From Gammaproteobacteria bacterium (GTDB lineage Bacteria > Pseudomonadota > Gammaproteobacteria > Steroidobacterales > Rariloculaceae): DNA of 64,000 nt. Shown piece by piece: positions 11,918-58,399 of the stretch (its first letter is position 1; the number at the start of each line of letters is the position of its first letter). A program made the translations under genes and the position numbers. Location of the stretch: assembly GCA_036381515.1 (NCBI GenBank), contig DASVCR010000074.1, positions 6,629-70,628 on the forward strand. Reading direction: 5' to 3'. A model generated the notes under the pieces. The model searched no databases, had not been told where the DNA came from, and saw only the letters and a program-made list of their open reading frames with translations.

Positions 11918-12967
11918 ATGAGTGCCCCGATTCCGCCCAAAGACGCCGACCGTGATGCCGCTTCGCTCGATCGCCGCACCGTGCTGCGCAGCGCGTCGGC
12001 GCTGCTCGCGGGCGCGGCGCTCGCGCAGACGTTCCGCGACGCGCGAGCGCAGGAGGGCGGCGGGGCAGGTGCATCCGCAGGCGCGGCCTCGTCGTCCGAG
12101 GGTCAAAGCGCTCCGCCGTCGATCCCGGGCTTCACGCCATATGACATCGAGACGAGCGGCGGCGTCACGATCCACGCGGTGAAGGGCGGCGACGGTCCGC
12201 CGGTGCTCCTGCTCCACGGTGCGCCGCTGACGCACTACACGTGGCGCGACGTCGCGCCGCGCCTCGCCGAGGAGTACACCGTCGTCGCCGCGGACCTGCG
12301 CGGCTACGGCGACAGCAGCAAGCCGCAGGGGCTGCCCGACCACTCGAACTACTCGAAGCGGGCGATGGCGCAGGATCAAATCGACGTGATGCGCCACTTC
12401 GGCTTCGAGCGGTTCGCGCTCGTCGGCCAGGACCGCGGCGGCCGCGTCGGTCATCGCATGGTGCTCGATCATCCGGACGCCGTCACGAAGGCGGTGTTCA
12501 TCGACATCGTGCCGACGTATTACCTCTACACGCACGTCACGCTCGACTTCGTGCAGGCGTACTACCACTGGTTCAGCTATCTGCGTCCCGCGCCGATCCC
12601 GGAGAACGAGCTGCTCGAGCGCAACGCGGAGCGCGCCCGCTCCGGGCGTCCGTTGCCGCCTGCGATGGCCGAGTACCAGCGCACGAACGGCACGCCGGAG
12701 GGCGTGCACGGCATGTGCGAGGACTATCGTGCCGGCGCATCGATCGACCTCGTGCACGACGCGGCGGACATCGACCAGCGCATCCGCTGCCCACTGCACA
12801 TCCTTTGGGCTGAGGGCGGCTCGATGGATCGCCTCTACGACGTGCTCGCGATCTGGCGCGAGCGCGGCACGAACGTGACCGGGCGCGCGATGCCCGGCGG
12901 TCACAACATGCAGGAGGGTGCGCCGGACGAGGTGCTTGCCGAGCTCAGGCAATTTCTGCGGAGCTGA
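11918..12967 (+). CDS. Tat-exported alpha/beta hydrolase, haloacetate-dehalogenase/epoxide-hydrolase-like (Asp nucleophile)
   Basis: Twin-arginine leader SLDRRTVLRSASALLAGAALA. HGAPLTHYTWRDV...DLRGYGDSSKP. The nucleophile elbow is GQDRGGRVGH (Asp rather than Ser). Confidence 0.85.
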   Translation: MSAPIPPKDADRDAASLDRRTVLRSASALLAGAALAQTFRDARAQEGGGAGASAGAASSSEGQSAPPSIPGFTPYDIETSGGVTIHAVKGGDGPPVLLLHGAPLTHYTWRDVAPRLAEEYTVVAADLRGYGDSSKPQGLPDHSNYSKRAMAQDQIDVMRHFGFERFALVGQDRGGRVGHRMVLDHPDAVTKAVFIDIVPTYYLYTHVTLDFVQAYYHWFSYLRPAPIPENELLERNAERARSGRPLPPAMAEYQRTNGTPEGVHGMCEDYRAGASIDLVHDAADIDQRIRCPLHILWAEGGSMDRLYDVLAIWRERGTNVTGRAMPGGHNMQEGAPDEVLAELRQFLRS

Positions 12968-13096
12968 CCGACGCCGCGCTTCTCGATCAACAGCGGTGGC
13001 GGCTATCGGGTGAGCGCAGATCGTGTCCGCAATCGCGCGCGAGCGGCGAGTTTGCTCGAAATGGTTCTATACGGGCACGGCTGGAGCGGGACTCGA

Positions 13097-13124
13097 AGTT
13101 CAGCGGCCGCGTGATGTCAACTGC
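13097..13124 (-). repeat. Truncated/degenerate copy of the attC-like element
   Basis: agttcagcggccgcgtga + tgtcaactgc: both arm ends of the 13917-14042 element are joined with the centre missing. It overlaps the stop of ORF 13117-13812. Confidence 0.45.
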
Positions 13125-13812
13125 CGGTCGAAAATTGAACATTTGTGGCGGCCGTCGGGTTTCCCTGGCATGCCGACGCGCGAATTTGCTGTACTCGCCG
13201 GCGAGTAACGCGCTGGAGCATGACAGGATAGCCATTTAGCAACATATTGAACGCGACGATCCACGCGGCCTCAGTGAACTGCCCGAGAGCCAGAAATAAC
13301 AGCGCGACTGAGGAAGCCAATATGAACGTCGCGCCGTGACATGCCTCGGCGCCTCGTGTCGTGGAGTCGATGCGATCCAGAAGTTCTCGACGGTTCTCGG
13401 CCTTTGGGGGTGGCTCCCCGCCGTGCATTAGAGGCCATATGCGGGTCGCAACGATCCGTTTGACCAGCCCGACGCCAAGGAAGCGGTAAAGGACGGGTTC
13501 TACCGGATGAATGGCTACGAGAAAACGAGGCAAGCGCAAAGCGCCGCGCATCAGCCACATCAAGAATAGACCGTTTGGACCCCACGCCAGCCCGAACGCC
13601 AACGCTGGGAAAGGCGAGCCAGCCAACGCAGATGGAAGAACTCCAAGGCCCAAGAAGAGTATCCGATACCCCCACACCTGTGCCGACAGTGGAATCATCG
13701 GTAACCTCATTCCGCCGGCGTGACACGGCCCGAAGCCAAGCTGCTCCAGGGCAAGCTTCAGGGACATGGTCGCCGTTCTGGGATAGCCGATACCAATTAC
13801 AGCAAGGGGCAT
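13117..13812 (-). CDS. Membrane protein with glycosyl-4,4'-diaponeurosporenoate acyltransferase (CrtO)-like C-terminal region; N-terminal ~34 aa look like a sulfotransferase fragment (possible chimeric or decayed cassette ORF)
   Basis: It lies in a low-G+C patch. The C-terminus HGATFILASSVALLFLALG...NMLLNGYPVMLQRVTRRR matches the N..NxYP..LQRYNR pattern. The N-terminus VIGIGYPRTATMSLKLALEQLGFGPCH matches the start of Sulfotransfer_4-type enzymes. Confidence 0.5.
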   Translation of the reverse strand: MPLAVIGIGYPRTATMSLKLALEQLGFGPCHAGGMRLPMIPLSAQVWGYRILFLGLGVLPSALAGSPFPALAFGLAWGPNGLFLMWLMRGALRLPRFLVAIHPVEPVLYRFLGVGLVKRIVATRIWPLMHGGEPPPKAENRRELLDRIDSTTRGAEACHGATFILASSVALLFLALGQFTEAAWIVAFNMLLNGYPVMLQRVTRRRVQQIRASACQGNPTAATNVQFSTGS

Positions 13813-13916
13813 ATTCGTCCTTTCAAGCGGGCAGGGTCACTGTGGTTAGCTCGTCCCCGTCAAAAGGAGACCTCGCCCTAAACTCGTTGCCAAAAGTGCG
13901 TGCGCGCTACTGCATC

Positions 13917-14042
13917 GCATAACGTCGCAGTTCAGCGGCCGCGTGACCACGTGTCCAGCGCGGTACTCGTGCATAATGAAATCGAGTACGTGCGACGCGC
14001 CCGTGCCGCCGTGTCACCGTCCGATGCAACTGCTCGTTCTAC
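13917..14042 (-). repeat. attC-like imperfect palindrome (integron cassette recombination-site architecture)
   Basis: The minus strand reads GTAGAAC-gagca-GTTGCATC...GCTGAAC-tgcgac-GTTATGC. This is the R''-L''...L'-R' layout with 5- and 6-nt spacers. The arms pair with a few unpaired bases. It starts 6 nt after the stop of ORF 14049-14519. It is closely similar to 17586-17710 in the opposite orientation. Confidence 0.55.
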
Positions 14043-14048
14043 GGGATG

Positions 14049-14519
14049 CTACGGCAAGCGCTTGCGAACTTCAGCGCGTGCGCGTGAGGCGATGCCAATA
14101 AACTCCTCGTCTGAGCCGCTGAGAAACGTCTGGCCGAACTCACTAAGATCATGCGCCAGATGGTGGAAGCCATCCATTGGGTCAGAAGAGAACCCGGGGT
14201 ACTGGTTAACGGGTTTCGCGCCCAACACAACTCTCATATAGGAATCGTGATCGAGCGACGTCTCGCCGAGATGATACGTAACTAGCCCGAGAGAATACCT
14301 GAAATGAAGTTCGAGTCGCCGCGTGCCGCGGACAAAGCTCCCACTGGCAGAGCTCCCGCCAGAGCTATGCCCTGCAGCGCCGGGAACCCATACGAAGCCG
14401 TGTGGAGCGAGCACCGGCTCGAGTATGGCGCAGCCGGCAGCAAGCGCTTCTTCAGGAGAACGCACCTGCGCAATCATGCGTATAACGCTCCGGATGAGCG
14501 GCGCGCTGCCGACGGTCAT
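14049..14519 (-). CDS. Hypothetical protein (orphan, cassette-like ORF)
   Basis: 156-aa ORF in the low-G+C patch. Its amino-acid composition is plausible and I recognise no motif. The attC-like element follows immediately at its 3' end. Confidence 0.55.
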   Translation of the reverse strand: MTVGSAPLIRSVIRMIAQVRSPEEALAAGCAILEPVLAPHGFVWVPGAAGHSSGGSSASGSFVRGTRRLELHFRYSLGLVTYHLGETSLDHDSYMRVVLGAKPVNQYPGFSSDPMDGFHHLAHDLSEFGQTFLSGSDEEFIGIASRARAEVRKRLP

Positions 14520-14553
14520 CTTTAGGCACTATATCCATCCCGCATCCGCTCCA

Positions 14554-14573
14554 CAGCTCAGCGGCCGCACGTC
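14554..14573 (-). repeat. Degenerate half-copy of the attC-like element arm
   Basis: cagctcagcggccgcacgtc resembles the gcagttcagcggccgcgtgac arm. No partner arm was found before the FG-GAP gene stop (14644). Confidence 0.35.
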
Positions 14574-14643
14574 GGCGTGTCATGCGTGGCGCGTGCGCAC
14601 AATGGCCACGCCGCGCTAGGAGGGACCCGCCAGCGCATCGGCG

Positions 14644-16071
14644 TTACGGCAGCGGCACCTCGGGGCTGTCCACCGCCCGGGCCTGCCGGAACGACGCGAC
14701 GGGCTCCGGCGTCCGCACCTGCTCTAGCCAGAACACGCCGTCGTAAGGTCCGCTGTTGCCGCGCGTGCCGACGAAATCCACATCGCCGTCCCCGTCCATG
14801 TCGCGCTCGATGAACATGTCGAACATCCCGCGCTGTCGGCGCGAGAAGTCGTGGCGGACCCACGTGCCGTCGCCCTGATTCTGGTACCACGCGAGCCGCC
14901 CGAGCGCGCCCCGCGGCGTCGGATCGTCGCGATCTCGCGGGCTCAGGCTGTAGCCGCCTGTCATCAGGTCCGGGTCGCCGTCGCCGTCGATGTCCGCGAC
15001 CCGAAGGCCCACGACCGAGTCCGGCGCGTATGAATCGATCCGGTGCTGTCGCCACGGCGACGTCGCCGTCTCCGGCTGCTCGAGCCAGACGAGCTCCGGC
15101 CCGACGATCCGCGCAGGATTGAACGTCACGATGTCGAGACGGCCGTCGCCCGAAAGGTCGACGAACTCCATGTGAAACCCGTGCACCGGGATCGGTGCCG
15201 CCGAAGGCTCGGCGGGCTCGAGCGCGAGGTCGTGCGTCGCGAAGCGAAACTCGCCGTCGCGGCCTTGGTTCTCGAACCAGACGATGCGCTGCTCGGCGAC
15301 GCTGCCGCCGACGATATCGATGTCGCCGTCGCCGTCGAGATCGACCGTGTGCGAGTTGATCGGCCACGTGATCTTCGTGAGCACGTGCTCGACCCACTCG
15401 TCGTCGAGCGGATCGCCGACGATCTCGAAGAACGAGATCGGCGTCGGATCCTGATCGACGGTCGGCCCTTGCGCGCCCTTGTTCGGCGACGTGACCTCGA
15501 GCCGGCCGTCGCCGTTCAGGTCCGCGACGAACACGCGGATGAACGAGCCGCGATCGCGGGTCACGGACGGGATCAGGCGCTGCCAGTCGGCGGCACGAGC
15601 GGCCGGTCCGCCCGGATTCTCGAAATAAATCAAGTGCGCGAGCTCGCACGCGACGATCACGTCGAGGTCACCGTCGCCGTCGAGGTCGGCGATCGCAGCG
15701 TCCTCGGCCGCGGCAGCCTCGGGACCTTCGGCGAGCGTCGCGAGCACCCAGCGGTCGGGATCGCCCGTGCCGAACGCGATCCGCACGTAGCCTTCCGGAT
15801 CGCCGCCGTAGACGTCGTCCGCCTCGTGCACCGAGATGATGTCCTCGTAGCCGTCGCCGTCGAGGTCCGCGATCGCGAGGCCGTCGCTGCCCCGGAGCGG
15901 GATGCCGCCGAGCGCCTCGTCGTCGATGATGTGCTCGCGCCACGAGATGTAGCGACCGTCCGCGGCTCGCGCGGCCGTCGGCTCGTCCGCGAGCCCGTCG
16001 GCGATCGCGGCGCGCTGAGGCAGCGCGAGCGGCGTGGCGGCGAGGATGAGCGCGGGAAGTGTTCTACTCAT
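14644..16071 (-). CDS. Secreted FG-GAP/VCBS repeat protein
   Basis: 475 aa. It has a signal peptide (MSRTLPALILAATPLALP) and repeated D.DGDGD.D calcium-binding/FG-GAP motifs throughout. Confidence 0.9.
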   Translation of the reverse strand: MSRTLPALILAATPLALPQRAAIADGLADEPTAARAADGRYISWREHIIDDEALGGIPLRGSDGLAIADLDGDGYEDIISVHEADDVYGGDPEGYVRIAFGTGDPDRWVLATLAEGPEAAAAEDAAIADLDGDGDLDVIVACELAHLIYFENPGGPAARAADWQRLIPSVTRDRGSFIRVFVADLNGDGRLEVTSPNKGAQGPTVDQDPTPISFFEIVGDPLDDEWVEHVLTKITWPINSHTVDLDGDGDIDIVGGSVAEQRIVWFENQGRDGEFRFATHDLALEPAEPSAAPIPVHGFHMEFVDLSGDGRLDIVTFNPARIVGPELVWLEQPETATSPWRQHRIDSYAPDSVVGLRVADIDGDGDPDLMTGGYSLSPRDRDDPTPRGALGRLAWYQNQGDGTWVRHDFSRRQRGMFDMFIERDMDGDGDVDFVGTRGNSGPYDGVFWLEQVRTPEPVASFRQARAVDSPEVPLP

Positions 16072-16341
16072 GGCGCATTCCCTCCTGCGGCACCGCGGCC
16101 AGCGCGGCCGCGCCGGTCAGTGTACCCGAAACGGGAACGGTCGCCGGCGGTGTGGTGTGCCTGGTTCGTGCGGCAGGGCTCGCTGTGTCGCGCGTTGCAC
16201 CGCCTCTCGTTGCTCGACCGCCGCGGCTGCCGTTCATGCGACGGCGGTGGCCTCGACGGCCGACGCTCGCGACGCGTACACTCGAGCGGCCTTGAGCCAT
16301 CGATAAACAAGAACCAAGCCGAATCGAGCGGGAAGAATGCG

Positions 16342-17211
16342 ATGATGATCGGAAAGACAGCGATGGGCTGCGTGCTGCTCCTTGCCGCGGGAGCGGCGTG
16401 CGCGCAGGCGCAGATCCCGGATCAGGTCGATGCGGTCTGCAGCCGCGCCGACCTCCAAGCGGCGGCCGAGAGCTACGTGGAAGCGCAGAAGTCGGGCGAC
16501 GTCTCGAAGATGAAGCTCGCGTCGGACGCGGTGTTCGTCGAGAACATGTCGCCCGTCGATCGCAGCGCAGGTTCGTGGAACACCGCGCTGCCGATCGCGT
16601 TGTCGCGGAGCTTCGTCGACGAGACGCGCTGCAAGACGTTCACGGAGATCGTCGTCACGGAGGGCGGTCACCCTTACGTGATCGGCACTCGGCTCTATGT
16701 CGACGGCGGCGAGGTCATCCGCGTCGACAGCCTCGTGACCGACGAAGGCGACTGGCTCTTCAACGCGAACGCGTACCTCAAGTATTCGAGCGCCGAGGAC
16801 TGGACCCCGCTGCCCGCGGAGCGGCGCACGCCGGCGCAGGAGCTGATCAACGCGGCGAACGCGTACCTCGATCTCTTCTCCGACAAGTTCGTCGAGGTGC
16901 CGTGGGGCATCCCGTGCGCGCGGCTAGAAGGCGGCGCGTACACCGATCGCAGCGGCGATCCGAACGCGACGTGCGAGGTCGGGATTCCGCGCGGCGTGCT
17001 CTACATCGTCAACCGCGACTACGTCGTCGACGAGGAGCTGGGCGTCGTGAACGTGTTTTGCCGCTTCGGCAACAGCACGACAGGCATGCCGGATTCGCAT
17101 ACGTTCCGTCTCGTCGACGGCAAGCTCAGGTACGTGCACACGTTGAGCGTGAATCTGAACCCGAACGCGCCATCGCCGCAGGCGGACGACAACGGCGTGA
17201 TCTTGCGCTAG
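16342..17211 (+). CDS. Secreted hypothetical protein
   Basis: This is the C-terminal part of track ORF 15043..17211. The in-frame ATG at 16342 gives MMIGKTAMGCVLLLAAGAACAQAQ, a signal peptide. GC3 bias appears only downstream of this point. Confidence 0.75.
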   Translation: MMIGKTAMGCVLLLAAGAACAQAQIPDQVDAVCSRADLQAAAESYVEAQKSGDVSKMKLASDAVFVENMSPVDRSAGSWNTALPIALSRSFVDETRCKTFTEIVVTEGGHPYVIGTRLYVDGGEVIRVDSLVTDEGDWLFNANAYLKYSSAEDWTPLPAERRTPAQELINAANAYLDLFSDKFVEVPWGIPCARLEGGAYTDRSGDPNATCEVGIPRGVLYIVNRDYVVDEELGVVNVFCRFGNSTTGMPDSHTFRLVDGKLRYVHTLSVNLNPNAPSPQADDNGVILR

Positions 17212-17274
17212 GAGGGTCAGCGTCGCAAGAAATTGGGGTCAGAGCCCGTTAGGCAGGAAGGGCGCCCGATCCGA

Positions 17275-17306
17275 GCGTTGTGCAATACAAGCGTTGTGCA
17301 ATACAA
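17275..17306 (+). repeat. Perfect tandem duplication of a 16-bp unit gcgttgtgcaatacaa (contains GTTGTGC core-like sites)
   Basis: Read directly. GTTGTGC is at 17277-17283 and 17293-17299. It is the exact complement of GCACAAC at 17586-17592. Confidence 0.8.
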
Positions 17307-17338
17307 ATGAGCCGTTTCACGATTCGCTGTGGGGGGCG

Positions 17339-17566
17339 ATGGACATTGCCTTGCGGGTAACTGTCTTATCGATCGTCGCGGTCGGCCTGTGTCTGATTGT
17401 GTGGCTGTGTTATCGCCTTTTGCGATGGGCGCGCACAGGGACTGGTGGAGCGCACATGCTGGGTGCGGTCCTAACCGAAGTTACTCAGAGCCCTGCTGTT
17501 CAGGAAGCCAAGCAGGGTAAGAAATCTCGTGAGGACGGTGGAGGTGACCCTCCGAACGGGCAGTGA
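17339..17566 (+). CDS. Small membrane protein (orphan, cassette-like ORF)
   Basis: ORF 17294..17566, ATG at 17339 (MDIALRVTVLSIVAVGLCLIVWLCYRLL). It has one TM helix and low G+C. An attC-like element lies 20 nt downstream. Confidence 0.5.
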   Translation: MDIALRVTVLSIVAVGLCLIVWLCYRLLRWARTGTGGAHMLGAVLTEVTQSPAVQEAKQGKKSREDGGGDPPNGQ

Positions 17567-17585
17567 AGAGCGCCGTGTGCCGCTT

Positions 17586-17710
17586 GCACAACAAGCAGTT
17601 GCAGCGGACCGTGACACCTTGGCGCGGGCGCGTCGCACTGCGACACTTCACTATGCACGTGCGGCGCGCTGGACGCGTGGTCACGCGGCCGCTGAACTGC
17701 GGCGCTTTGG
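17586..17710 (+). repeat. attC-like imperfect palindrome
   Basis: GCACAAC-aagca-GTTGCAGC...GCTGAAC-tgcggc-(gctttgg). R'', L'' and L' are well formed and the R' position is degenerate. Its arms and much of the centre match the 13917-14042 element in inverse orientation. Confidence 0.55.
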
Positions 17711-17737
17711 AAAAAGGGCTCTGACCCCGATTTTCTG

Positions 17738-17947
17738 TCACTTCCGCGCGCCGAGCCGCGCGAGCATCAGCGAGAGCTCTTCCGGGCTGATGTAGAAGTG
17801 CTCGCAGACGCGGCCCCAGAGCATCGCCGTCGGCACGTTGCGGTCGGCGCGCTCCTTCTGCGTCTCGTGCAGCACGTGGAGGACGATCCGCTCCTTCCGC
17901 GTCAGCCCGTCGCGGACGTCGGGGAGGATGTCGTCGAGGCGTTTCAC
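17738..17947 (-). CDS. Small hypothetical protein, possibly winged-helix
   Basis: ORF 17738..18037(-). The 5' end of that ORF is REP DNA, so I prefer the internal GTG at 17947 (VKRLDDILPDVRDGLTRKERIVLHVLHETQKE...). The start is uncertain and no clear RBS is present. Confidence 0.45.
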   Translation of the reverse strand: MKRLDDILPDVRDGLTRKERIVLHVLHETQKERADRNVPTAMLWGRVCEHFYISPEELSLMLARLGARK

Positions 17948-18019
17948 GGGAGGGGTTCCGCTTGCGTATTGCCGGGGCACGATGTCCAACGAGGCGCTGA
18001 CCCTACGATACCAGCAGGG

Positions 18020-18096
18020 GAAAATCGTGTCAGACACCTTTTTCGCAGAAAAAGGTGTCTGACACGATTTTCAAGAAGGTGTCTGACACGATTTTC
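18020..18096. repeat. REP-like cluster: three copies of GAAAATCGTGTCAGACACCTT (one forward, two inverted), the first two forming an 18-bp perfect hairpin
   Basis: cgtgtcagacaccttttt (18026-18043), loop cgcag, aaaaaggtgtctgacacg (18049-18066). The third copy is at 18076-18096. Confidence 0.85.
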
Positions 18097-18174
18097 GGTT
18101 GCGCGACGCTTCTGTCGTGGACGATGATGACGGCGCTCCCCTTTGGGGACAAGAACAACGAGGAGGGGAACCGC

Positions 18175-19587
18175 ATGACCGCATTGACGAGGTGGCTTTG
18201 CGCCGCGCTCGCGGCATTGGCCGTGTCGGCCGCGCACGCACAAATCTCGCTGAACGGCGCGCGTATCGGCGCCGAGGACGTCGCCGCGCTCGCAGAGTTC
18301 TACCAGAAGGCGTTCGGTCTCGAGGAAGTGAACCGGCTCGAGTTCCCGGGGATGCTCGAGATCATGCTCGACTTCGGCGACACGGTCGACGCCGCGAAGG
18401 CAAATCCCGCGGCGGACGTCGTGATCATGACGCGCGAGTCAGACGATCTGGAGGATTCGGTCCCCCACCTGATCTTCAACGTCGCCGATGCGGCCGCCGT
18501 CGCCGCGGCGGTCGAGGCGGCCGGCGGCACGATGGACGGACCGCCGCGCGCGTTCGGCAATACGGGCATATTGATCGCGTTCGGCCGCGATCCGGCCGGC
18601 AACCGCTTCGAGCTGATCCAGGGGCTCGGCGGTCCGCAGGCGTCGGCGGGGCGAGGCACGCTCGAGCGGATCACCGTCCACGGCACGTCGCTCGAGGGCA
18701 ACCTCTCCGGCGACGACCCGAATCGCGAGGTCTTCGTCTACCTGCCGCCGAGCTACGCGTCGCAGCCGCAGCGCCGCTATCCGGTCGTCTACTTCCTGCA
18801 CGGGTACGGCGTCGGCGCGGAAGTCTACGCGAACCTGCTCGGCCTGCCCGACGCGATCGACCAGGCGATCGCGAACGGCGCGCGCGAGATGATCGTCGTG
18901 CTGCCGGATGCAAACACGGTCTACAACGGCAGCATGTACTCGAGCTCGCCGACGAACGGCGACTGGGAGGGCTTCGTCGCGAACGACCTCGTCGCGTACA
19001 TCGACGAGCACTACCGGACGATCCCGCGCGCGGAGAGCCGCGGGCTCGCCGGCCACTCGATGGGCGGCTACGGCACGCTGCGTATCGGCATGAAGCACCC
19101 GGGCGTGTTCGGCGCGTTGTACGCGATGAGCTCGTGCTGCCTGATGAACGCCGCGCCGTCGAAGGAGGCCGTCGAAGCGCAGATCGAGCGCACGAAGAAC
19201 GGCCGGCCGACGGAAGGCCGCGGCTTCGCGAACGTGCTGCTCGCGCAGGCCGCGGCGTGGGCGCCGAATCCGCAGAATCCGCCGCTTTACATCGACTGGC
19301 CGTACAAGGACGGCGAGCGGCAGCCGCTCGTCGAGGCGAAGTGGATCGCGAATTCGCCGCTCGCGCTGGTCGATCAGTACGTGCCGAGCCTGAAAAGCTA
19401 CCGCGCGATCGCCATCGACGTCGGCAACGCGGACGGCCTGCACGACAGCAACGTGCAGCTATCGGAGGCTTTGCGCCGGCTCGGCGTCGAGCACACGTTC
19501 GAGGTGTACGACGGAGATCACGGCAACCGCGTGGCGCAGCGCTTCCGGGAGAACGTGATGACGTTCTTCACGGAGCACCTCGAGTAG
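18175..19587 (+). CDS. Secreted VOC (glyoxalase-fold) domain fused to esterase-D/putative esterase family alpha/beta hydrolase
   Basis: ORF 18055..19587. ATG 18175 is preceded by GAGGAGGGG and gives a signal peptide (MTALTRWLCAALAALAVSAAHA). The VOC-like N-domain is followed by YPVVYFLHGYG...GLAGHSMGGYG, the esterase nucleophile elbow. Confidence 0.85.
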   Translation: MTALTRWLCAALAALAVSAAHAQISLNGARIGAEDVAALAEFYQKAFGLEEVNRLEFPGMLEIMLDFGDTVDAAKANPAADVVIMTRESDDLEDSVPHLIFNVADAAAVAAAVEAAGGTMDGPPRAFGNTGILIAFGRDPAGNRFELIQGLGGPQASAGRGTLERITVHGTSLEGNLSGDDPNREVFVYLPPSYASQPQRRYPVVYFLHGYGVGAEVYANLLGLPDAIDQAIANGAREMIVVLPDANTVYNGSMYSSSPTNGDWEGFVANDLVAYIDEHYRTIPRAESRGLAGHSMGGYGTLRIGMKHPGVFGALYAMSSCCLMNAAPSKEAVEAQIERTKNGRPTEGRGFANVLLAQAAAWAPNPQNPPLYIDWPYKDGERQPLVEAKWIANSPLALVDQYVPSLKSYRAIAIDVGNADGLHDSNVQLSEALRRLGVEHTFEVYDGDHGNRVAQRFRENVMTFFTEHLE

Positions 19588-19606
19588 CGCGGCTCGAGCC
19601 GGACGG

Positions 19607-19632
19607 CACCGCTCGCCTCGGCGCGAGCGGTG
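19607..19632 (+). terminator. 10-bp perfect GC-rich stem-loop 20 nt after the stop (no U-tract)
   Basis: caccgctcgc-ctcggc-gcgagcggtg read directly. Confidence 0.35.
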
Positions 19633-19836
19633 CGGCCGGCCGCCTCGATCCCGGCGACGCGCGCGAGATCGATGGCCTACTAGCGCGCGATATAGCGCCC
19701 CCCGCCGCAGCACGAAGCGGCACATAGCACCGTCGCCGCGGCCCTAGCAGGTAGCCCGCGGCTACTGACAGGCGGCCGTCGCCGACGACGATCGCGAGCC
19801 CGGTCGACGCGACGCTCGTACGACGCGCCGACCCTG

Positions 19837-21216
19837 TCAGCGGGAGCCGCCGGACCGCGAGTACGCGATCCGATAGATCACGCTCGCCTCGTCGTCGCTC
19901 AGGAGCAGTGAGCCGTCGCCGAGCTGGACGAGGCTCGACGGCCGCCCCCACGGCTCGCCGGCGTCGGTGATGAAGCCGACGAGGAAATCGACGTACTCGC
20001 CGGTCGGCACGCCGTTCTCGAGCGGCAGCCGCACGACCTTGTGCCCGGTGCGGTCCGCGCGGTTCCACGACCCGTGGAACACGGCGAACGCATCGCCGAC
20101 GTACTCCTCGGGGAACGCCGCGGCGCCCGAGCTCGGCCCGTAGAACAGGAAGCCGACCGCGGCCGAGTGCGCGCGGTACGGCACGTCCGGCGTCAGCGCC
20201 TTGCCGGCGAGATCCGGCCGCTCTCCGGCGTGGCGCGGGTCCTCGTGGTTGCCCATGTAGTACCACGGCCAGCCGTAGAAGCCGCCTTCCTGCACGCGTG
20301 TCGAGTAGTCCGGGACGATCTCGTCGCCGAGCCCGTCGCGCTCGTTGACGGTGCACCACACGTCGCCGTTGTCCGGATTCATGCCGAGCGCGACGCAGTT
20401 CCGGATCCCCGTCGCGTAGATTTTGCCTTCGGGCGCGACGACCTTCCCGTCTGCCGCGACGTCGAAGACGAGCACGTCGGCGCGTCGCGTCTCGTTGCCC
20501 CACGCGGCGCCGACGCCGTGCTCCGCTTCCCACGCCTCGATGCCGCCGGGCGGCGATTCCGGCATGTCCTCGGCGACGTTCGACTCCGAGCCGACCGAGA
20601 CGAACATGCGACGTCCGTCCGGCGAGAAGACGAGGTCGCGCGTGTAATGGCCGCGGCCCGTCGGCGCGAGCTCGGGCACGAGGACCTCGGGCTCGCCGGA
20701 CGCGGTCGTGTCTCCCGCCCGGTAGCGATAGCGGACGACGCGGTTGTTCTCCGCGACGTACAGCCACTCCGGGTTCTCGGCCGGGTAGAACTGCATGCCG
20801 AACGGCTGCGTCAGCCCTTCGGCGAAGATCGCGACGCTCTTGGCCGTGGCCCCGTCCGCGGACGGGCGCAGCACCCTGATCCGGCCGGGGCGCGTCTCCG
20901 CGACGAACACGTCGCCGTTCGGCGCGACGCGCATCACGCGCGGCCGCTCGACGTCGCGGGTGTAGACGTCGACCGTGAATCCTTGCGGCACCGTGAGCTC
21001 TGCGTCGTCCGGCCGCGGGACGATGCGCGGGAAATTCACGTTGGAGCCCGTCGCGAACGGCTCGGGCAGCGAGGACAAGTCTATTCGATGCACGCGGCCC
21101 GGCGCGTCGCGCTGCCAGTCGGGACCTGCGTCCTGGGCGGCGACGACGCTCGGGATGAGCATCACGGCGGCGACGGAGAGAAAGACGGCCGAAAGCGCGG
21201 AATATCTCAGCGACAT
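19837..21216 (-). CDS. PQQ-dependent sugar (glucose/sorbosone) dehydrogenase-like beta-propeller
   Basis: ORF 19837..21255(-), ATG at 21216 (MSLRYSALSAVFLSVAAVMLIPSVVAAQ). LTVPQGFTVDVYTRDVERPRVMRVAPNGDVFVAE is the typical SGDH N-terminal pattern. Confidence 0.85.
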   Translation of the reverse strand: MSLRYSALSAVFLSVAAVMLIPSVVAAQDAGPDWQRDAPGRVHRIDLSSLPEPFATGSNVNFPRIVPRPDDAELTVPQGFTVDVYTRDVERPRVMRVAPNGDVFVAETRPGRIRVLRPSADGATAKSVAIFAEGLTQPFGMQFYPAENPEWLYVAENNRVVRYRYRAGDTTASGEPEVLVPELAPTGRGHYTRDLVFSPDGRRMFVSVGSESNVAEDMPESPPGGIEAWEAEHGVGAAWGNETRRADVLVFDVAADGKVVAPEGKIYATGIRNCVALGMNPDNGDVWCTVNERDGLGDEIVPDYSTRVQEGGFYGWPWYYMGNHEDPRHAGERPDLAGKALTPDVPYRAHSAAVGFLFYGPSSGAAAFPEEYVGDAFAVFHGSWNRADRTGHKVVRLPLENGVPTGEYVDFLVGFITDAGEPWGRPSSLVQLGDGSLLLSDDEASVIYRIAYSRSGGSR

Positions 21217-21448
21217 GGTGTCCCCCGGGCGGTTCGTTCGACTCGTTTGCGGCATTTTCGCACGAAATCGGGTCGGACACCTTGCAGATCAGGATCGCGG
21301 GCCGGCTCGGAAGAGCCGGCCCACCTTGGCCAAGCGCTACCTCGCCTCGGAGGGAAGACGCCACGCCTCAGCCGAGCGCGGCCTCATTTGAGGACCGGCA
21401 CGCTGTTGAAGACAGGCACGCCGTCCCACCTGAAAAAGGCGCGCCGCC

Positions 21449-52830: not shown

Positions 52831-53394
52831 ATGACCGTCGTTTCCGAGAAAGCCATCGGGGATCATCTCGACTTCGTCGTCGCGCAGCCCGACCACGAGC
52901 AGGCCGTCGTGCGCGACCTCGTCTTCGCCGTGATGGCGTTCAATCAGTACACGCGCGGCGAGCCGCTGCAGGTCAGCTTCCCGCTTTACACGGAAGCGAA
53001 AGTCGCGAGCCGGGGGGCTCTCGGACCGTGCGTGCGGATCACGGGACCCGCGGAGAAGCTCTACGTGCTCACGTTGCGCTACGAGATCGCGGAGCACCTG
53101 CGGGCGGGCCGCGTGATGACGCTCATCCGCGACCGCGTCGTCGTCGAGGCTGGCCGCAACGAGCGCTTCTCGCTGATCCATGGCGCGCCGAAGATCGCGC
53201 TCGCGCAGCCGGCGCGTGCGCGGCCGCTCGTCCTCACCGGGCATTCGCGGCTCATCGAGACGGCAGCCGCGTTGGGCGTCGCCGTGAAGGACGAGGCGGC
53301 GTTCGTCGAGCGCGAGGAGAGCCCCGTCGCGACGGACGGCGAAGTGGATCTGCTCGGCTTCTCGGATCGGAAGACGCTGCCGGTTCTGAAATAG
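52831..53394 (+). CDS. Hypothetical protein (no recognisable domain)
   Basis: 187-aa ORF with good GC3 bias. It is on the same strand as, and 198 bp upstream of, the 53593-58399 operon. Confidence 0.6.
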   Translation: MTVVSEKAIGDHLDFVVAQPDHEQAVVRDLVFAVMAFNQYTRGEPLQVSFPLYTEAKVASRGALGPCVRITGPAEKLYVLTLRYEIAEHLRAGRVMTLIRDRVVVEAGRNERFSLIHGAPKIALAQPARARPLVLTGHSRLIETAAALGVAVKDEAAFVEREESPVATDGEVDLLGFSDRKTLPVLK

Positions 53395-53592: not shown

Positions 53593-54324
53593 ATGAGCCG
53601 ACCGGTCCCTACACGGCACGAGCCGGCGGAGCGGTTCGCCGACGACCTGCTTCGCCGATTGGACGCGGCAGGCGAGCGAGGCCTGACGTCCGCGGAGCTC
53701 AAGCTGCCTAGCGCGGGCTCGCGGGCGGGCCGCGCGTGCCGCGGCGCGTTGCAGAGTCTGTTGAGGCGCGGCGAGATCGGTAATCTCGGCACCGCGAAGC
53801 GGCCCCGCTATGTTTCGATTGAGTATTACCGCCCGCTCGAGATCGCGTACGACCATATCGCGGCCCGGGCGCGCGAAGCCGGCACCAGGTTGTCGTCGAA
53901 GACCGCGCTCGCAAAGGGGCTCTCCGGCGCGGCAAAAGAGCGTGTCGACGAGGCATTGAAGCTCCTCGTCGCCGAGGGCGCGCTGCTGCGGCTCAAGTGG
54001 GGCGTGCATCCGCTCTACCTGCACGCATCAGCCGTATCCACGCGACCGAAAGGGCACACTGCTAACGGCATCGATGCCGCCGCGCTGCGCCGCGCGTACG
54101 ACGATACCGTCCGCGAGTTCGGGTATCCCGACGTGCTGATCCACGAGCTGCATTTGCGCCTCGGCGGCGAGCTCGAGCCGTTGAAACAGGCGCTGCTCGA
54201 TGCATGCCGGACAGGCGAGGCCATCCCCGGCGTCGGCGACTGGTCGTTGTCTTCGGAGAACGAGCGGGCCGCGGCGCTCTACGTCGACGGACGTCCGCAT
54301 TTGCGGATCCGTTTTAGGCGATGA
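53593..54324 (+). CDS. Hypothetical protein with two winged-helix-like segments
   Basis: 243 aa. LLRRLDAAGERGLTSAELKL...ALQSLLRRGEIGNLG and KERVDEALKLLVAEGALLRLKWG look like wHTH recognition units. Its stop overlaps the next start (ATGA at 54321-54324). Confidence 0.7.
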   Translation: MSRPVPTRHEPAERFADDLLRRLDAAGERGLTSAELKLPSAGSRAGRACRGALQSLLRRGEIGNLGTAKRPRYVSIEYYRPLEIAYDHIAARAREAGTRLSSKTALAKGLSGAAKERVDEALKLLVAEGALLRLKWGVHPLYLHASAVSTRPKGHTANGIDAAALRRAYDDTVREFGYPDVLIHELHLRLGGELEPLKQALLDACRTGEAIPGVGDWSLSSENERAAALYVDGRPHLRIRFRR

Positions 54325-56450
54325 CAACGATGGTCGAGCGGCAAGCGCTGTCCATCAATCCATTCGCCGACGACATTGTCGACGATCCGCGGCGGGTCGA
54401 GTACTCGGTGCCGGGGCTCAACGAAAAGGTCGCCTCGGAGATCGTTTCCCGGATCGAAGCGCTCTGCAACCCGGACGAGCTGAGCCGGCGCCCACACCCT
54501 CGAAAGGCGTTGATCGTGCTCTCGAGACGCGCCGGCTTCGGAAAGTCGCACCTGATCGGCACCGTCTTCAGGAAACTCAGTGGCAAGGCGACGCTCGTGA
54601 ACGTGCGTCCGTTCGAGGATCCGGCGACGCGTTGGAAATCGATCCTCGATCGGGTCGTGCAGGAGCTGGATTTTCCGGACCGCTACACGGAGTCCGTTGC
54701 CGATCAGCCGACGCAGCTCGAACTCTTCGCGCACGGCGTGCTGAGCAGGATTGCCGCCGACCAGCTCGAAGCGAGCCGCGGCAGCAAGCGGGACATCGAC
54801 CGATTACGGCAACCGGCCGACCGGCTGGCAGGACTCAAGCGCCACAAGAAGTGGCGCGAGTACATCGACAACGCGACGCGCGACGGTGCATGGCTGAGCC
54901 AGGTTGAACGTCGGTTGCAGGCGAGCCAGCTGCGCCTCGATACGCCACTGCCGACGTGGCTGCGCGTGCTGTACAGCTACGCCTATCAGGGCGATGACTG
55001 GGATCTGCGCCGTTCTTGTCTCGACTGGATACAGGCGGACGCGATAGAGGACGGGACCGCCGCGGCGATCGGCATCCGTATTGCGGACCGTGTCAATCCG
55101 ATGTATGGCGCGGTCGAGCTAAACGAGCTCGCGAAGACGCGCGTGCTCGACCTCTGCCGCCTGTCGAGATTCTTTCGGCCGTTCCTGTTCTGCTTTGATC
55201 AGACGGAGATGTACGGCAACTCGCCCGAGCTCGCGGCCGCGCTGGGGACGGTGATTCACGAGCTCGTCGACGAAGGCGTGAATCACGTGGCCGTGATCAC
55301 GGCCAATGCTGACCCATGGGAGAAGCTGTTGCGGCCGCACTGGCAGAATGCCAGTCGCGACCGGCTGGATCGACCGTACTTGACGCTGGAAGGCATCACC
55401 CGCCAGCAAGGTTGCGAGCTGGCTGAGCATCGGCTCGGGCTGTTCGACATCGACCGGGCCGGAAGGGACCGCTTCTGGGCCGACCGGCGCTGGCTCGAGG
55501 AACACTTCGAGAGTAGCGCCGAGGTCAGTGTCAGGGATTTTCTCCATCGATGCTCGCACCGGTGGATGGAGTGCGTCGCCCGTCCTGACGCCGCAGTGGC
55601 GCCGGCCGAGCGGGTCCCGCTCACCGCGCTGTTCGAGAAGTACGTTGACGCCGTCAGTGCGAAACCACGCCGACTGGTCTTCGACCGGGACGCGCTCCAT
55701 TGGCTCGTTCGCCATCTGGCCGAAGGGCTTGATGGCGTCGAAGTGGGCACGCTTGGTGAGCGCCCGAAGGGCGGGCTGCCGCTATGGCGGCACGCCGGGA
55801 AGGAGTACGTGTTCGGCTTCGAGTCCGGTACGCACTGGAAGAAGTGGCATAACATCGCACGGGCGGCGCTCGGCAAAAGCGCTGAGCACGGCCGGGTTCT
55901 GGTCTACCCGCGCACGCCGGAGCTGCCGCGGATTCCGAGACCGACGTGGAACGTTGCAAAGCCGGATATCGAGCGGGCGCGTGCGACCGGCGGCCTGCTG
56001 ATCCTCGAGCTCACGAAGCACCGAGTCGTCGAACTCTATGCCGCGCACGAGATGTACGCGGATGCGCTGCAAGGCAACATCGATTGGGCTGTAGACGACG
56101 TGGTGCCGTTCCTGCGCGAGCGATTGGCCGACTTCTGGCGCGAGGTGCTCGACCCTCGCGGCGAGCCTGCACCGACTCGAGGCCCTGATTCGGTATCCCC
56201 GAGTCCGTCCGACGCCGCGCCCGCGGAGCGAAAGCGCATGAAGCGGCGGCGTCCGAACGGCGGCGAGGGCGAGCTTTCGCGTCGCGTCGTCGACGTGATC
56301 CGCAGCAGACGGTTCATGAGCCTCGATGAGTTGCTCGCGACGCTACCCGACGCGGATCGCGAGGCGGTGCTCGGCATCTGCGGCGGCACGGCCGGCATCA
56401 AGGTGCATGCCCACCCGAACCAGACGATCCTGCAATGGCAGACCGCCTGA
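54321..56450 (+). CDS. Large P-loop NTPase (STAND/AAA-like) with C-terminal winged-helix-like tail
   Basis: 709 aa. Walker A LSRRAGFGKSHLIG (about 54531-54555). Walker-B-like FLFCFDQTE (about 55182-55208). The basic linker KRMKRRRP is followed by RFMSLDELLATLPDADREAVLGI. It overlaps both neighbouring genes. Confidence 0.75.
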   Translation: MTTMVERQALSINPFADDIVDDPRRVEYSVPGLNEKVASEIVSRIEALCNPDELSRRPHPRKALIVLSRRAGFGKSHLIGTVFRKLSGKATLVNVRPFEDPATRWKSILDRVVQELDFPDRYTESVADQPTQLELFAHGVLSRIAADQLEASRGSKRDIDRLRQPADRLAGLKRHKKWREYIDNATRDGAWLSQVERRLQASQLRLDTPLPTWLRVLYSYAYQGDDWDLRRSCLDWIQADAIEDGTAAAIGIRIADRVNPMYGAVELNELAKTRVLDLCRLSRFFRPFLFCFDQTEMYGNSPELAAALGTVIHELVDEGVNHVAVITANADPWEKLLRPHWQNASRDRLDRPYLTLEGITRQQGCELAEHRLGLFDIDRAGRDRFWADRRWLEEHFESSAEVSVRDFLHRCSHRWMECVARPDAAVAPAERVPLTALFEKYVDAVSAKPRRLVFDRDALHWLVRHLAEGLDGVEVGTLGERPKGGLPLWRHAGKEYVFGFESGTHWKKWHNIARAALGKSAEHGRVLVYPRTPELPRIPRPTWNVAKPDIERARATGGLLILELTKHRVVELYAAHEMYADALQGNIDWAVDDVVPFLRERLADFWREVLDPRGEPAPTRGPDSVSPSPSDAAPAERKRMKRRRPNGGEGELSRRVVDVIRSRRFMSLDELLATLPDADREAVLGICGGTAGIKVHAHPNQTILQWQTA

Positions 56451-58399
56451 GCGTCACGGAGCTCAAGTGCGCCGTGCTCGATCAAGAGTTTCGGCGCCGG
56501 CTGATCGACGGCGAGCGGCCCGCGATCCCGTGGTGCGTTCCGTCGAATGGCGGACCGCCGGTCAAGGGCGCGTTGTTTCACAAGCTCGCGGACGCGTTCA
56601 CGCGGTGGCTGTCGAGTGCCGGGCCGCAAGGCTTGGATCTCGTGACCGCGGACGATCTTTGGCACGCGCTCTACGACCGCTTCGCCGAAGCGGACCTGAC
56701 GGAGCTCGCGGAAACCGGGCAGCTCGAGTCGGCGCTCCATATAAGCCTTTGCCTGCGCACCTTCTGCACCCGGCTCGCCTCGCTGCGGGGCTCGATCCAG
56801 GGCTTCGCCGGCTGGCAGGATCTTTTCCTCGGCATGGAGCTCCCGATCGAAGGCGTCGTGATCGCGGATACCGACTTCGCGGTGTCGGGCCGGGTCGATG
56901 CAGTGCGCGCCGACACGAAACACGGCGTCGTCGTCGTGGACTACAAGTTGTCGCGCGGCAGTCAGACGAAGCATGACCTGCTGCAGCTGGCGATCTACGC
57001 GCATCTCCTCGAAGCGATTCGGCCCGGGTTGAGCTTCGCCGGGCTGCTCGAGTACTACGATCCGGAGCTCTGCTGCATAGAGGTAGACCCCGACGACCTG
57101 CGCGCATTGTTCCGCGACGTCGTAATGCCCGTGCTCCGCGAGATGACCGACACCCGCCGTGCTGCCGAGGCGCGGCGAACGGGCATCGCGGCGCATCCGG
57201 GCGACGGAAAGGCAGCATCGCCCCAGCAACGCGGTGCGGCCGGCGATCGTGCGGCGGACGAGGCAACCGACGGCTCGGCGGAGACGGCGCAAGCGGAAAC
57301 TACGCACGCCGACACTGCACGAGCGGACGAAGAGCCCGATCTGTCTACGCTAATCGTCGAGACGTTCGCCGACTTCCGTCTCGACGTCCAGGTGGTCGGG
57401 CGCGTGAAGGCGCCGCAGCTCGTGCGCTACAAGGTGCGGCCCGCGCGCGGCGTGAAGGTCGTTTCGCTCGCTAACCGCTCCGAGGACCTGCAGGTGCGCC
57501 TCACGTTGCCGTCACCGCCGCGAATCGGACCCTGCGAGGGATACGTCAGCGTCGACATTCCGAAGAGGTGCCCTCGAACCGTTTATTGGAGCGACATCCG
57601 TTCGGCCTCCCGATCTGAGCACGGGTCCGTCGTCTTTCCGATCGGCGTCGGCGTCGAAGGCGACGTGCTGTTCGCGGACTTCGCGGATCCCAACACGTGC
57701 CACGCGATCGTCGCCGGAACCTCCGGCAGCGGCAAGAGCGAGTTCCTGAAGTCGATGTGCGCGTCGCTGCTCGCGCGCAACCGCCCCGACACGCTGCGCC
57801 TGACGTTGGTCGACCCGAAGATCCTGACCTTCGGCGCGCTGAGCCGCTTCCCGCACGTGTCGGGGCCCGTGATCAGCGACGTCGACGAAGCGATCGAGTG
57901 CCTCGAGCGCGCCGTCGCGGAGATGGAGGCGCGCTATCGTCAGCTCGCCGATGAAGGGTTCACGAATCTCGCCGAGCGGATGTGCGCGGGCCGCGCCGAC
58001 CTGCCGTTCCATGTGATCGTCTTCGACGAGTTCGCGGATCTCGTGCTCGCCGGGAAGCAGCACAAGGCGACGTTCGAGAGCTTCGTCGCGCGGCTCGCCG
58101 CGAAGGGGAGAGCCGCCGGCATTCACCTCGTGCTCGCGACGCAGCGTCCCGACAGGACGATCGTGACCGGAATCATCAAGGCGAACCTGCCGCTGAAGGT
58201 GTGTCTCAAGGTCACGAGCGCCGTCAACTCGCAGATCATCCTCGACGAGGCCGGCGCCGAGACGCTCGTCGGCAAGGGCGATCTCTTGTGCGACCGCGGA
58301 CGCGGCGTCGAGCGCGCGCAATCGCCGTTCGTCCGTCCGGACGACCTCGACGCGCTTTACGCGGAGGCGGCACGTTTCGCGGATCGGGCGACCGCCTGA
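56435..58399 (+). CDS. PD-(D/E)XK (Cas4/RecB-like) nuclease domain fused to FtsK/SpoIIIE-type DNA translocase (alpha+beta domains, no TM, no gamma domain recognised)
   Basis: The N-terminus has GRVDAV...VVVVDYKL...QLAIYAHLL (D, D/ExK, QxxxY). A low-complexity linker follows. Then come the FtsK alpha-like segment (QLVRYKVRPARGVKVVSLANRSEDLQVRL), Walker A GTSGSGKS, Walker B FHVIVFDEFADL and AAGIHLVLATQRP. It overlaps the upstream gene by 16 nt. Confidence 0.85.
   Translation: MADRLSVTELKCAVLDQEFRRRLIDGERPAIPWCVPSNGGPPVKGALFHKLADAFTRWLSSAGPQGLDLVTADDLWHALYDRFAEADLTELAETGQLESALHISLCLRTFCTRLASLRGSIQGFAGWQDLFLGMELPIEGVVIADTDFAVSGRVDAVRADTKHGVVVVDYKLSRGSQTKHDLLQLAIYAHLLEAIRPGLSFAGLLEYYDPELCCIEVDPDDLRALFRDVVMPVLREMTDTRRAAEARRTGIAAHPGDGKAASPQQRGAAGDRAADEATDGSAETAQAETTHADTARADEEPDLSTLIVETFADFRLDVQVVGRVKAPQLVRYKVRPARGVKVVSLANRSEDLQVRLTLPSPPRIGPCEGYVSVDIPKRCPRTVYWSDIRSASRSEHGSVVFPIGVGVEGDVLFADFADPNTCHAIVAGTSGSGKSEFLKSMCASLLARNRPDTLRLTLVDPKILTFGALSRFPHVSGPVISDVDEAIECLERAVAEMEARYRQLADEGFTNLAERMCAGRADLPFHVIVFDEFADLVLAGKQHKATFESFVARLAAKGRAAGIHLVLATQRPDRTIVTGIIKANLPLKVCLKVTSAVNSQIILDEAGAETLVGKGDLLCDRGRGVERAQSPFVRPDDLDALYAEAARFADRATA

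Follow-up and report, generated by a model that had tools for sequence, protein, structure and literature searches.

A window of 64,000 nucleotides from contig DASVCR010000074.1 (GenBank assembly GCA_036381515.1), from a gammaproteobacterial metagenome-assembled genome assigned to the Rariloculaceae, carries three adjoining genes, here called B, C and D, that are the subject of this analysis. They encode, in order, a protein predicted to fold into three winged helix-turn-helix (wHTH) domains, an ATPase placed by structural modelling in the ORC/Cdc6 clade, and a fusion of a PD-(D/E)XK nuclease with an FtsK-type motor (Table 1; all positions are those of the window). The first-pass annotation of this DNA, made from the sequence alone, had described three overlapping open reading frames (ORFs) on one strand, and coordinates and junction sequence agree with that description. 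At the B/C junction, GGCGATGACA, the ATG at 54321-54323 overlaps the TGA at 54322-54324 (ATGA), and C and D overlap by 16 nucleotides, C terminating in CAATGGCAGACCGCCTGA at 56450 and the ATG of D lying at 56435. Because gene calls in public assemblies start C 9 nucleotides (three codons) later, at Met4, yielding a protein of 706 amino acids, the ATGA overlap hinges on the choice of the initiating Met of C. Taken with their conservation elsewhere, described below, B, C and D form a single conserved, translationally coupled cassette. The lower G+C content that had been noticed by eye is real, though mild: 0.666 for B to D against 0.693 for the whole window, at the 7th percentile among 4.8-kb windows, with lower values elsewhere in the window at about 12.7-18.4 kb. 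A scan of the locus for promoters and terminators was uninformative in DNA this rich in G+C.

Table 1. Genes and predicted domains of the cassette and the ORF upstream of it
Feature	Window position	Strand	Residues or length	Assignment
187-aa ORF	52831-53394	+	187 aa	Lies between tannase-like gene and B
Gene B	53593-54324	+	243 aa	Triple wHTH protein (predicted)
B, wHTH domains			about 10-76, 80-145, 160-243	Three wHTH domains (predicted)
Gene C	54321-56450	+	709 aa	ORC/Cdc6-clade AAA+ ATPase (predicted)
C, AAA+ region			about 30-420	Walker A GFGKS 72-76 (G72-F-G-K75-S76); Walker B FDQTE 292-296
C, REase-like region			about 434-610	alpha-beta-beta-beta-alpha-beta, without catalytic residues (predicted; REase, restriction endonuclease)
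C, C-terminal wHTH			about 645-709	wHTH (predicted)
Gene D	56435-58399	+	654 aa	PD-(D/E)XK nuclease + FtsK-alpha + FtsK motor
D, N-terminal domain	56435-57139	+	38-211 (Pfam match)	RecB/Cas4-type PD-(D/E)XK nuclease; Pfam PDDEXK_1, 1.3e-10
D, FtsK-alpha domain	57296-57562	+	288-376 (Pfam match)	Pfam FtsK_alpha, 8.1e-10
D, FtsK/SpoIIIE motor (beta)	57611-58399	+	393-572 (Pfam match)	Pfam FtsK_SpoIIIE, 1.9e-38

The fusion of nuclease and FtsK motor that had been proposed for D is borne out by Pfam, which finds PDDEXK_1, FtsK_alpha and FtsK_SpoIIIE in the one chain, and the nuclease is also matched by PADLOC Cas4 models at 1e-7. Across 120 aligned homologues the nuclease motif (D154, D169-x-K171 and Q183xxxY187) and the motor motifs (Walker A G428TSGSGKS, G428-S435; Walker B D531-E532; Q570-R571) are at least 95% conserved, so that both activities are predicted to be intact. 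D has neither a membrane domain nor a gamma domain, its chain stopping shortly past the motor, and it scores far under the NCBIfam cut-offs for cellular FtsK, TraB, EccC and Cas4.

For C the informative comparison is one of structure. Searches of Pfam, NCBIfam, PADLOC and PHROGs gave no usable match, sequence-level similarity was weak (AAA_16 and DnaC), and a profile search against PDB sequences returned noise, with DnaC at an E-value of 0.7. The AlphaFold2 (AF2) model (mean predicted local distance difference test, pLDDT, 88.5; predicted template modelling score, pTM, 0.89) has as its best Foldseek matches in the PDB, at probabilities of 0.98-1.0, human ORC4 (7jpq_D), BrxC (9zll_B, 9zdx) and archaeal Cdc6/Orc1 (2qby_B, 1fnn_A, 1w5s); the E-values are just 2e-3 to 2e-2 because the whole multi-domain model was the query. 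C had been called a P-loop nucleoside triphosphatase (NTPase), which holds as far as it goes but is too generic a label, since the model and its neighbours place C among the AAA+ ATPases that form the ORC/Cdc6 clade. The Walker A and Walker B motifs and the sensor Asn are conserved in the homologue alignment. Within the Walker B F-D-Q-T-E (55194-55208) the D, T and E are invariant and the Q at least 90% conserved across 50 homologues. AAA+ proteins usually carry a catalytic Glu at the position of this Gln, and the D-Q in place of D-E suggests that C is possibly a slow or non-hydrolysing ATP switch, unless E296 substitutes.

Between the AAA+ lid and the C-terminal wHTH, the model of C places a unit whose secondary structure over residues 456-531, alpha(456-466)-beta-beta-beta(474-498)-alpha(506-523)-beta(525-531), follows the core order of the PD-(D/E)XK fold, with no conserved D...(D/E)xK among homologues. 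Alignment of this region with the nuclease of D by hhalign gave no match, nor did Pfam on the isolated sub-domains, and the label of inactive REase is for that reason a structural one. The wHTH that follows is modelled as three helices (647-663, 668-674 and 680-689) and a beta-hairpin (693-706).

B had been read as a double-wHTH protein; the AF2 model (pLDDT 91.5) instead gives three consecutive winged helices. Its best Foldseek matches are tandem winged-helix proteins (RPC34, TFIIIC tauB, AlkX/YcaQ and SelB WH2-4; E-values 1.6e-5 to 8e-4), while Pfam, PADLOC, NCBIfam and PHROGs gave no match and a profile search against PDB sequences gave noise. Across homologous loci the median identity to the window proteins is 50% for D, 36% for C and 34% for B, and in 34 loci in which C and D can still be seen, B escapes detection by tblastn. 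By these sequence comparisons B is the fastest evolving of the three components, and it is presumed to be the DNA- or target-recognition subunit; a gradient of identity from D through C to B, with B often lost to BLAST, fits a sensor engaged in an arms race and coupled to a conserved effector.

The three genes recur together well beyond the window. The survey took in 80 metagenomic loci for which C served as the anchor and a further 8 genomic loci, and the presence of B and D was counted solely in those C-anchored metagenomic loci with room for the gene. B lies upstream of C in 70 of 71 such loci and D is present in 60 of 63, so that the co-occurrence check proposed in the first-pass annotation finds the three genes together almost always. 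The order B-C-D on one strand is almost invariant across about 60 dereplicated, independent loci, and the start of D, extrapolated from the profile alignment, falls 10-25 nucleotides 5' of the C stop in 55 of 74 homologous loci. The hosts represent at least six phyla or classes, including Gammaproteobacteria, Alphaproteobacteria, Desulfobacterales, Spirochaetota, Verrucomicrobiota and Planctomycetota (Kuenenia). The C family comprises 278 clusters at E<=1e-30 in a library clustered at 50%, and clustering at 90% leaves more than 500 fusion proteins like D, from several phyla, of which P0001 is 100% identical to D. A scan of genome contigs with D retrieved mostly housekeeping chlamydial FtsK, the true full-length relatives being L002-L008 only. 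C and D also occur fused as single polypeptides of 1190-1418 amino acids (P0203, P0328, P0352, P0382 and P0385), and in P0384 (1378 amino acids) a protein of the C family is fused to a HerA-type motor (DUF87/HerA_C/TrwB-like) and not to FtsK, which is direct evidence of a motor swap within the C family.

This architecture has a published counterpart. Rakesh, Aravind and Krishnan (NAR 2024, PMC10853773), who took the FtsK domain of DndH as their starting point, described in silico a set of "HerA/FtsK capture systems" with a proposed anti-invader role, a concept restated by the same authors in 2026 (PMC12839542). As the 2024 paper outlines the class, an Orc/CDC6 AAA+ ATPase, whose AAA+ core is invariably separated from a C-terminal wHTH by an inserted inactive REase, is combined with an active REase and a HerA or FtsK motor, one subset having an FtsK-alpha domain captured from cellular FtsK; a subset of operons adds a rapidly evolving protein of two to four wHTH domains related to DndG/SspB/FokI, the domains may be spread over one or several polypeptides, and the motors have been captured from different sources. 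Judged from these domain descriptions, the cassette differs from the class in nothing substantive. C supplies the Orc/CDC6-family AAA+ domain and the C-terminal wHTH, and its middle unit has the REase core order in the expected position by AF2 topology, without profile support; D supplies the active REase-fold nuclease and the FtsK-alpha-bearing motor; and the C+D fusions and P0384 reproduce the split, fused and motor-swapped arrangements. B, with three wHTH domains and the fastest divergence, answers to the multi-wHTH protein outlined there, although it has no PADLOC match to DptG/SspB, and DndG, SspB and FokI lie outside its Foldseek top 50. B-C-D is a member of this predicted class, published in silico only, and is most readily interpreted as a stand-alone chromosomal anti-invader (defence) system belonging to it, a reading to which we attach a probability of about 0.6. 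The earlier proposal of an undescribed DNA-targeting conflict system is thus upheld in its functional part, which the domain anatomy and the near-constant co-occurrence of the genes make the best-supported reading, but not in its claim to novelty, since the architecture is already laid out in the domain descriptions of PMC10853773. A match to a named system had been listed among the outcomes that would overturn that proposal; what the paper offers, as far as its class description goes, is such a match in a weak sense, to a published class that is itself predicted and is absent from PADLOC. The paper reports no experiment and supplies neither a name nor a detection model.

Comparison with better known systems sets the cassette apart from each of them. 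With DndFGH/SspFGH (DptFGH) it shares a three-gene, modification-independent restriction logic of NTPase, multi-wHTH protein and a protein joining REase to a HerA/FtsK motor. The motor of D matches PADLOC SspH at 4.7e-58, solely over model residues 1504-1761, the C-terminal ~260 of roughly 1760; at 654 amino acids against the roughly 1700 of DndH, D lacks the inactive SWI2/SNF2, beta-sandwich, target-recognition (TRD) and inactive-methylase domains; C is an ORC/Cdc6 AAA+ protein by its model and not a kinase-like NTPase such as DndF; and B and C match no Dnd/Ssp model in a cassette without flanking dnd or ssp modification genes. Identity with DndFGH/SspFGH was accordingly rejected on the restriction of the SspH match to the last 260 positions and the lack of PADLOC matches for B and C. 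The alpha and beta motor of D is homologous to that of cellular FtsK/SpoIIIE (Pfam 1.9e-38; NCBIfam FtsK model 1.5e-56), whereas D carries a nuclease in place of the N-terminal membrane domain and linker and has no gamma (KOPS/XerD) domain, and its NCBIfam score of 191.9 against an equivalog cutoff of 1566 led to rejection of a cellular FtsK identity. CRISPR Cas4 was likewise set aside (TIGR00372 29.9 against a cutoff of 65; no cas genes among neighbours, with one weak Cas3c-like helicase match elsewhere). The HerA-nuclease pairs (archaeal HerA-NurA and the anti-phage HerA-DUF4297 and HerA-Sir2) likewise couple a hexameric ATPase of the HerA/FtsK superfamily to a nuclease or effector; in D, by contrast, nuclease and motor form one chain and the motor is of FtsK type, not HerA type, the cassette adds an ORC-like ATPase and a wHTH subunit, and PADLOC HerA models match only weakly and partially (3.6e-10 or worse). 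With BrxC of BREX and the ORC/Cdc6 initiators, to which its AAA+ region is structurally closest (ORC4, Cdc6/Orc1, BrxC), C would share a C-terminal wHTH and the character of a switch that sits on DNA and depends on ATP; the cassette lacks PglZ, PglX and BrxA/B, and C has the REase-like insert and the D-Q-T-E Walker B.

The distribution of the cassette bears on whether it might instead serve the host as a housekeeping or accessory machine for DNA repair or end resection, in the manner of HerA-NurA or RecBCD/AddAB, with C and B loading D at damaged DNA. Its chromosomal, syntenic position among metabolic genes in the window and the closest relative would suit such a role, as would its absence from phage records, viral contigs and, at full length, plasmids, the membership of the D nuclease in the RecB/AddB/Cas4 family, and an SbcCD-like pair that adjoins the cassette at one locus (L088). 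Repair systems are usually inherited vertically and found throughout a clade, whereas this cassette is patchy and sporadic at about 50% identity across phyla. It is frequently found decayed (L085, L100, L109, L118 and L126), degenerate forms including B-C without D, D cut down to its nuclease, truncated C and an IS6-flanked fragment of C (L170); its DNA-binding subunit B evolves very fast; and PMC10853773 reports TIR, KAP and STAND immunity modules in association with related Orc/Cdc6 genes. A repair function is on this balance unlikely. At two of the surveyed loci (L085, 8611-15528, and L086) C is reduced to its C-terminal 433 amino acids, B is absent, and D is followed 3' by a protein of 373 amino acids and a HATPase_c (GHKL) protein of 788-879 amino acids; this variant represents either decay or another set of partners.

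The window cassette is chromosomal. Its neighbours are genes for a tannase-like esterase, an Abhydrolase_9 protein, a PAS histidine kinase, DUF763 and MarR/EmrAB-like proteins, and no tRNA, integrase, relaxase or mobility gene of another kind flanks it, in keeping with the first-pass observation that integrase, relaxase, type IV secretion system (T4SS) and phage genes are missing nearby. Flanking repeats are merely 14-29 nucleotides long, imperfect and at chance level for GC-rich DNA. A mobile element at the window locus was rejected on these grounds, that is, no tRNA, no meaningful direct or inverted repeats and ordinary flanking genes. More widely, a census took in 269 ORFs that flank the cassette at 56 dereplicated loci. 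It held no conserved fourth gene, and relaxase and T4SS families were absent from its 25 most populous families. A minority of its members are linked to defence or mobility: six tyrosine integrases, two rve transposases, two zeta toxins, two HEPN proteins, AbiLi, AriA and several PADLOC candidate (PDC) families. No full-length copy of the cassette was found in 72,556 plasmids (PLSDB), 50,697 phage records (INPHARED) or IMG/VR contigs. The sole plasmid match to C is a fragment of 226 amino acids (C residues 390-609) on pOB3b1 of Methylosinus trichosporium OB3b (L170, 7055-7735), which lies just 3' of two IS6 transposase copies and adjoins an RtcR/RtcB RNA-repair locus.

These observations also weigh on the proposal that the cassette is a module of a mobile element, or its domesticated remnant, devoted to processing, segregation or transfer of the element's own DNA. 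ORC/Cdc6-clade AAA+ and REase-fold proteins do cooperate in Tn7/Mu transposition (TnsC with TnsA, as cited in PMC10853773), and the same paper uses the term "mobile gene neighbourhoods" in describing its class; FtsK-like motors drive Streptomyces plasmid transfer, and plasmid_TraB matches D weakly (5.9e-15); and the integrases and transposases of the census could be counted in its favour. Against it, the conserved partners of the cassette do not include any recombinase, transposase, relaxase or T4SS gene, the window locus lacks terminal repeats and a tRNA, the plasmid, phage and IMG/VR collections hold no full-length copy, and D reaches 54.8 with the plasmid_TraB model, whose cutoff is 800. 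Such a role or origin is very unlikely. The plasmid_TraB score, together with the lack of a full-length plasmid copy, also led to rejection of D as a conjugative/T4SS or TraB-type ATPase. Two features of the flanks at other loci may be recorded here. In the relative whose D is 85% identical (L082/L083, 12031-14102) D is separated from the DUF763 gene by a GSDH-family dehydrogenase gene and an ORF of 166 amino acids, neither of which the window has, and the D/DUF763 junction is thus an indel hotspot. In Desulfonema limicola (CP061799; L084, 5530-7175) genes for a ParB_N/AsnC-like protein of 354 amino acids and a PK_C-like protein of 182 amino acids lie directly 5' of B, and are not homologous to the 187-amino-acid ORF of the window.

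If B-C-D is indeed a defence system, a plausible sequence of events is that B, together with the wHTH and REase-like modules of C, would detect foreign DNA as it enters or replicates, through a feature of the DNA or through a foreign protein attached to it. ATP-bound C would then act as an initiator or loader, in the manner of ORC/Cdc6, TnsC and BrxC, recruiting or assembling a hexamer of D on that DNA, and D would pump the double-stranded DNA (dsDNA) through its ring while six N-terminal nucleases cut processively. The mechanism sketched in the first-pass annotation, in which NTPase and wHTH proteins sense or load and the motor-nuclease degrades, is essentially the hypothesis found in the class description of PMC10853773, and is a prediction. 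As no modification enzyme is encoded, discrimination of self from non-self must use the state or site of the DNA, or gated activation, and not methylation. We give even odds to the specific form of this scheme in which the system acts independently of modification against phages and plasmids, C, guided by a hypervariable B, recognising a state peculiar to the invading DNA (an origin or intermediate of replication, for example, a substrate for packaging or transfer, or free ends) and loading a hexameric FtsK pump whose fused Cas4-like nucleases shred the DNA.

The same lack of any modification or self-marking function would suit a toxin-like, abortive-infection role, in which D, upon sensing of infection, degrades the host chromosome and not selectively the DNA of the invader. 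Related HerA-nuclease systems act by activated, non-specific DNA cleavage, and zeta-toxin and HEPN genes are occasional neighbours of the cassette. The sequence holds nothing that separates suicide from direct targeting, and the several wHTH modules, which read sequence or structure, speak for recruitment to a target; abortive infection, a form of the defence reading, is for us a quite improbable account, ranking between repair and the mobile element. The assignment of B-C-D to anti-invader defence has its own difficulties. The window and its 85%-identical relative carry the cassette at a syntenic spot amid metabolic genes, with no island signature beyond the mild G+C dip, and the neighbours in the census are mostly housekeeping genes, the share linked to defence or mobility being small and without a background rate for comparison. 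The operon shows no visible basis for sparing the host chromosome, the inactive REase of C is assigned from predicted topology, and C, to judge from its Walker B, may bind ATP as a switch yet hydrolyse it slowly or not at all. A full-text literature search found no experimental study of an Orc/Cdc6 + HerA/FtsK capture system.

Validation of the cassette would make a purely computational class (about 280 clusters at 50% identity, in several phyla) experimentally accessible in compact form. It would be the first experimentally tractable case of immunity by an initiator-like loader plus a dsDNA pump-nuclease, and a three-gene model for the HerA/FtsK-capture class including DndH/SspH. It could reveal how an ORC-like AAA+ switch and an FtsK pump cooperate, what the FtsK module of DndH/SspH does, and how a nuclease tethered to a pump is kept in check on a host chromosome that carries no protective modification. 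Current defence-annotation pipelines cannot see the system, as Pfam, NCBIfam and PADLOC have no model for B or C; the alignments from this analysis could seed such detection models.

The first-pass annotation had hinted that the ORF upstream of B (Table 1) might belong to the system. It is confined to close relatives and absent beside all other cassettes, and at 93% identity in the closest relative it is more conserved than B (78%), C (81%) or D (85%), on which grounds it was rejected as a fourth component. Its family matches, to Cas6f/Csy4 and PdxR, are insignificant (E about 0.01-0.08; Cas6f 0.02), and it appears to be a lineage-specific gene. Elsewhere in the window, the stretch at about 12700-21400 has the lowest G+C (0.646) and could be a separate acquired region; it includes a gene for an FG-GAP/TcdB-like repeat protein on the minus strand (14644-16071) and long ORFs with no Pfam match (15043-17211, 18099-19727 and 19568-21364), which may be spurious or novel genes. 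At 10077-11843, on the plus strand, lies a gene for an ankyrin-repeat protein of 588 amino acids (Ank_2 2e-63); ankyrin-repeat proteins are uncommon in free-living bacteria and are often effectors.

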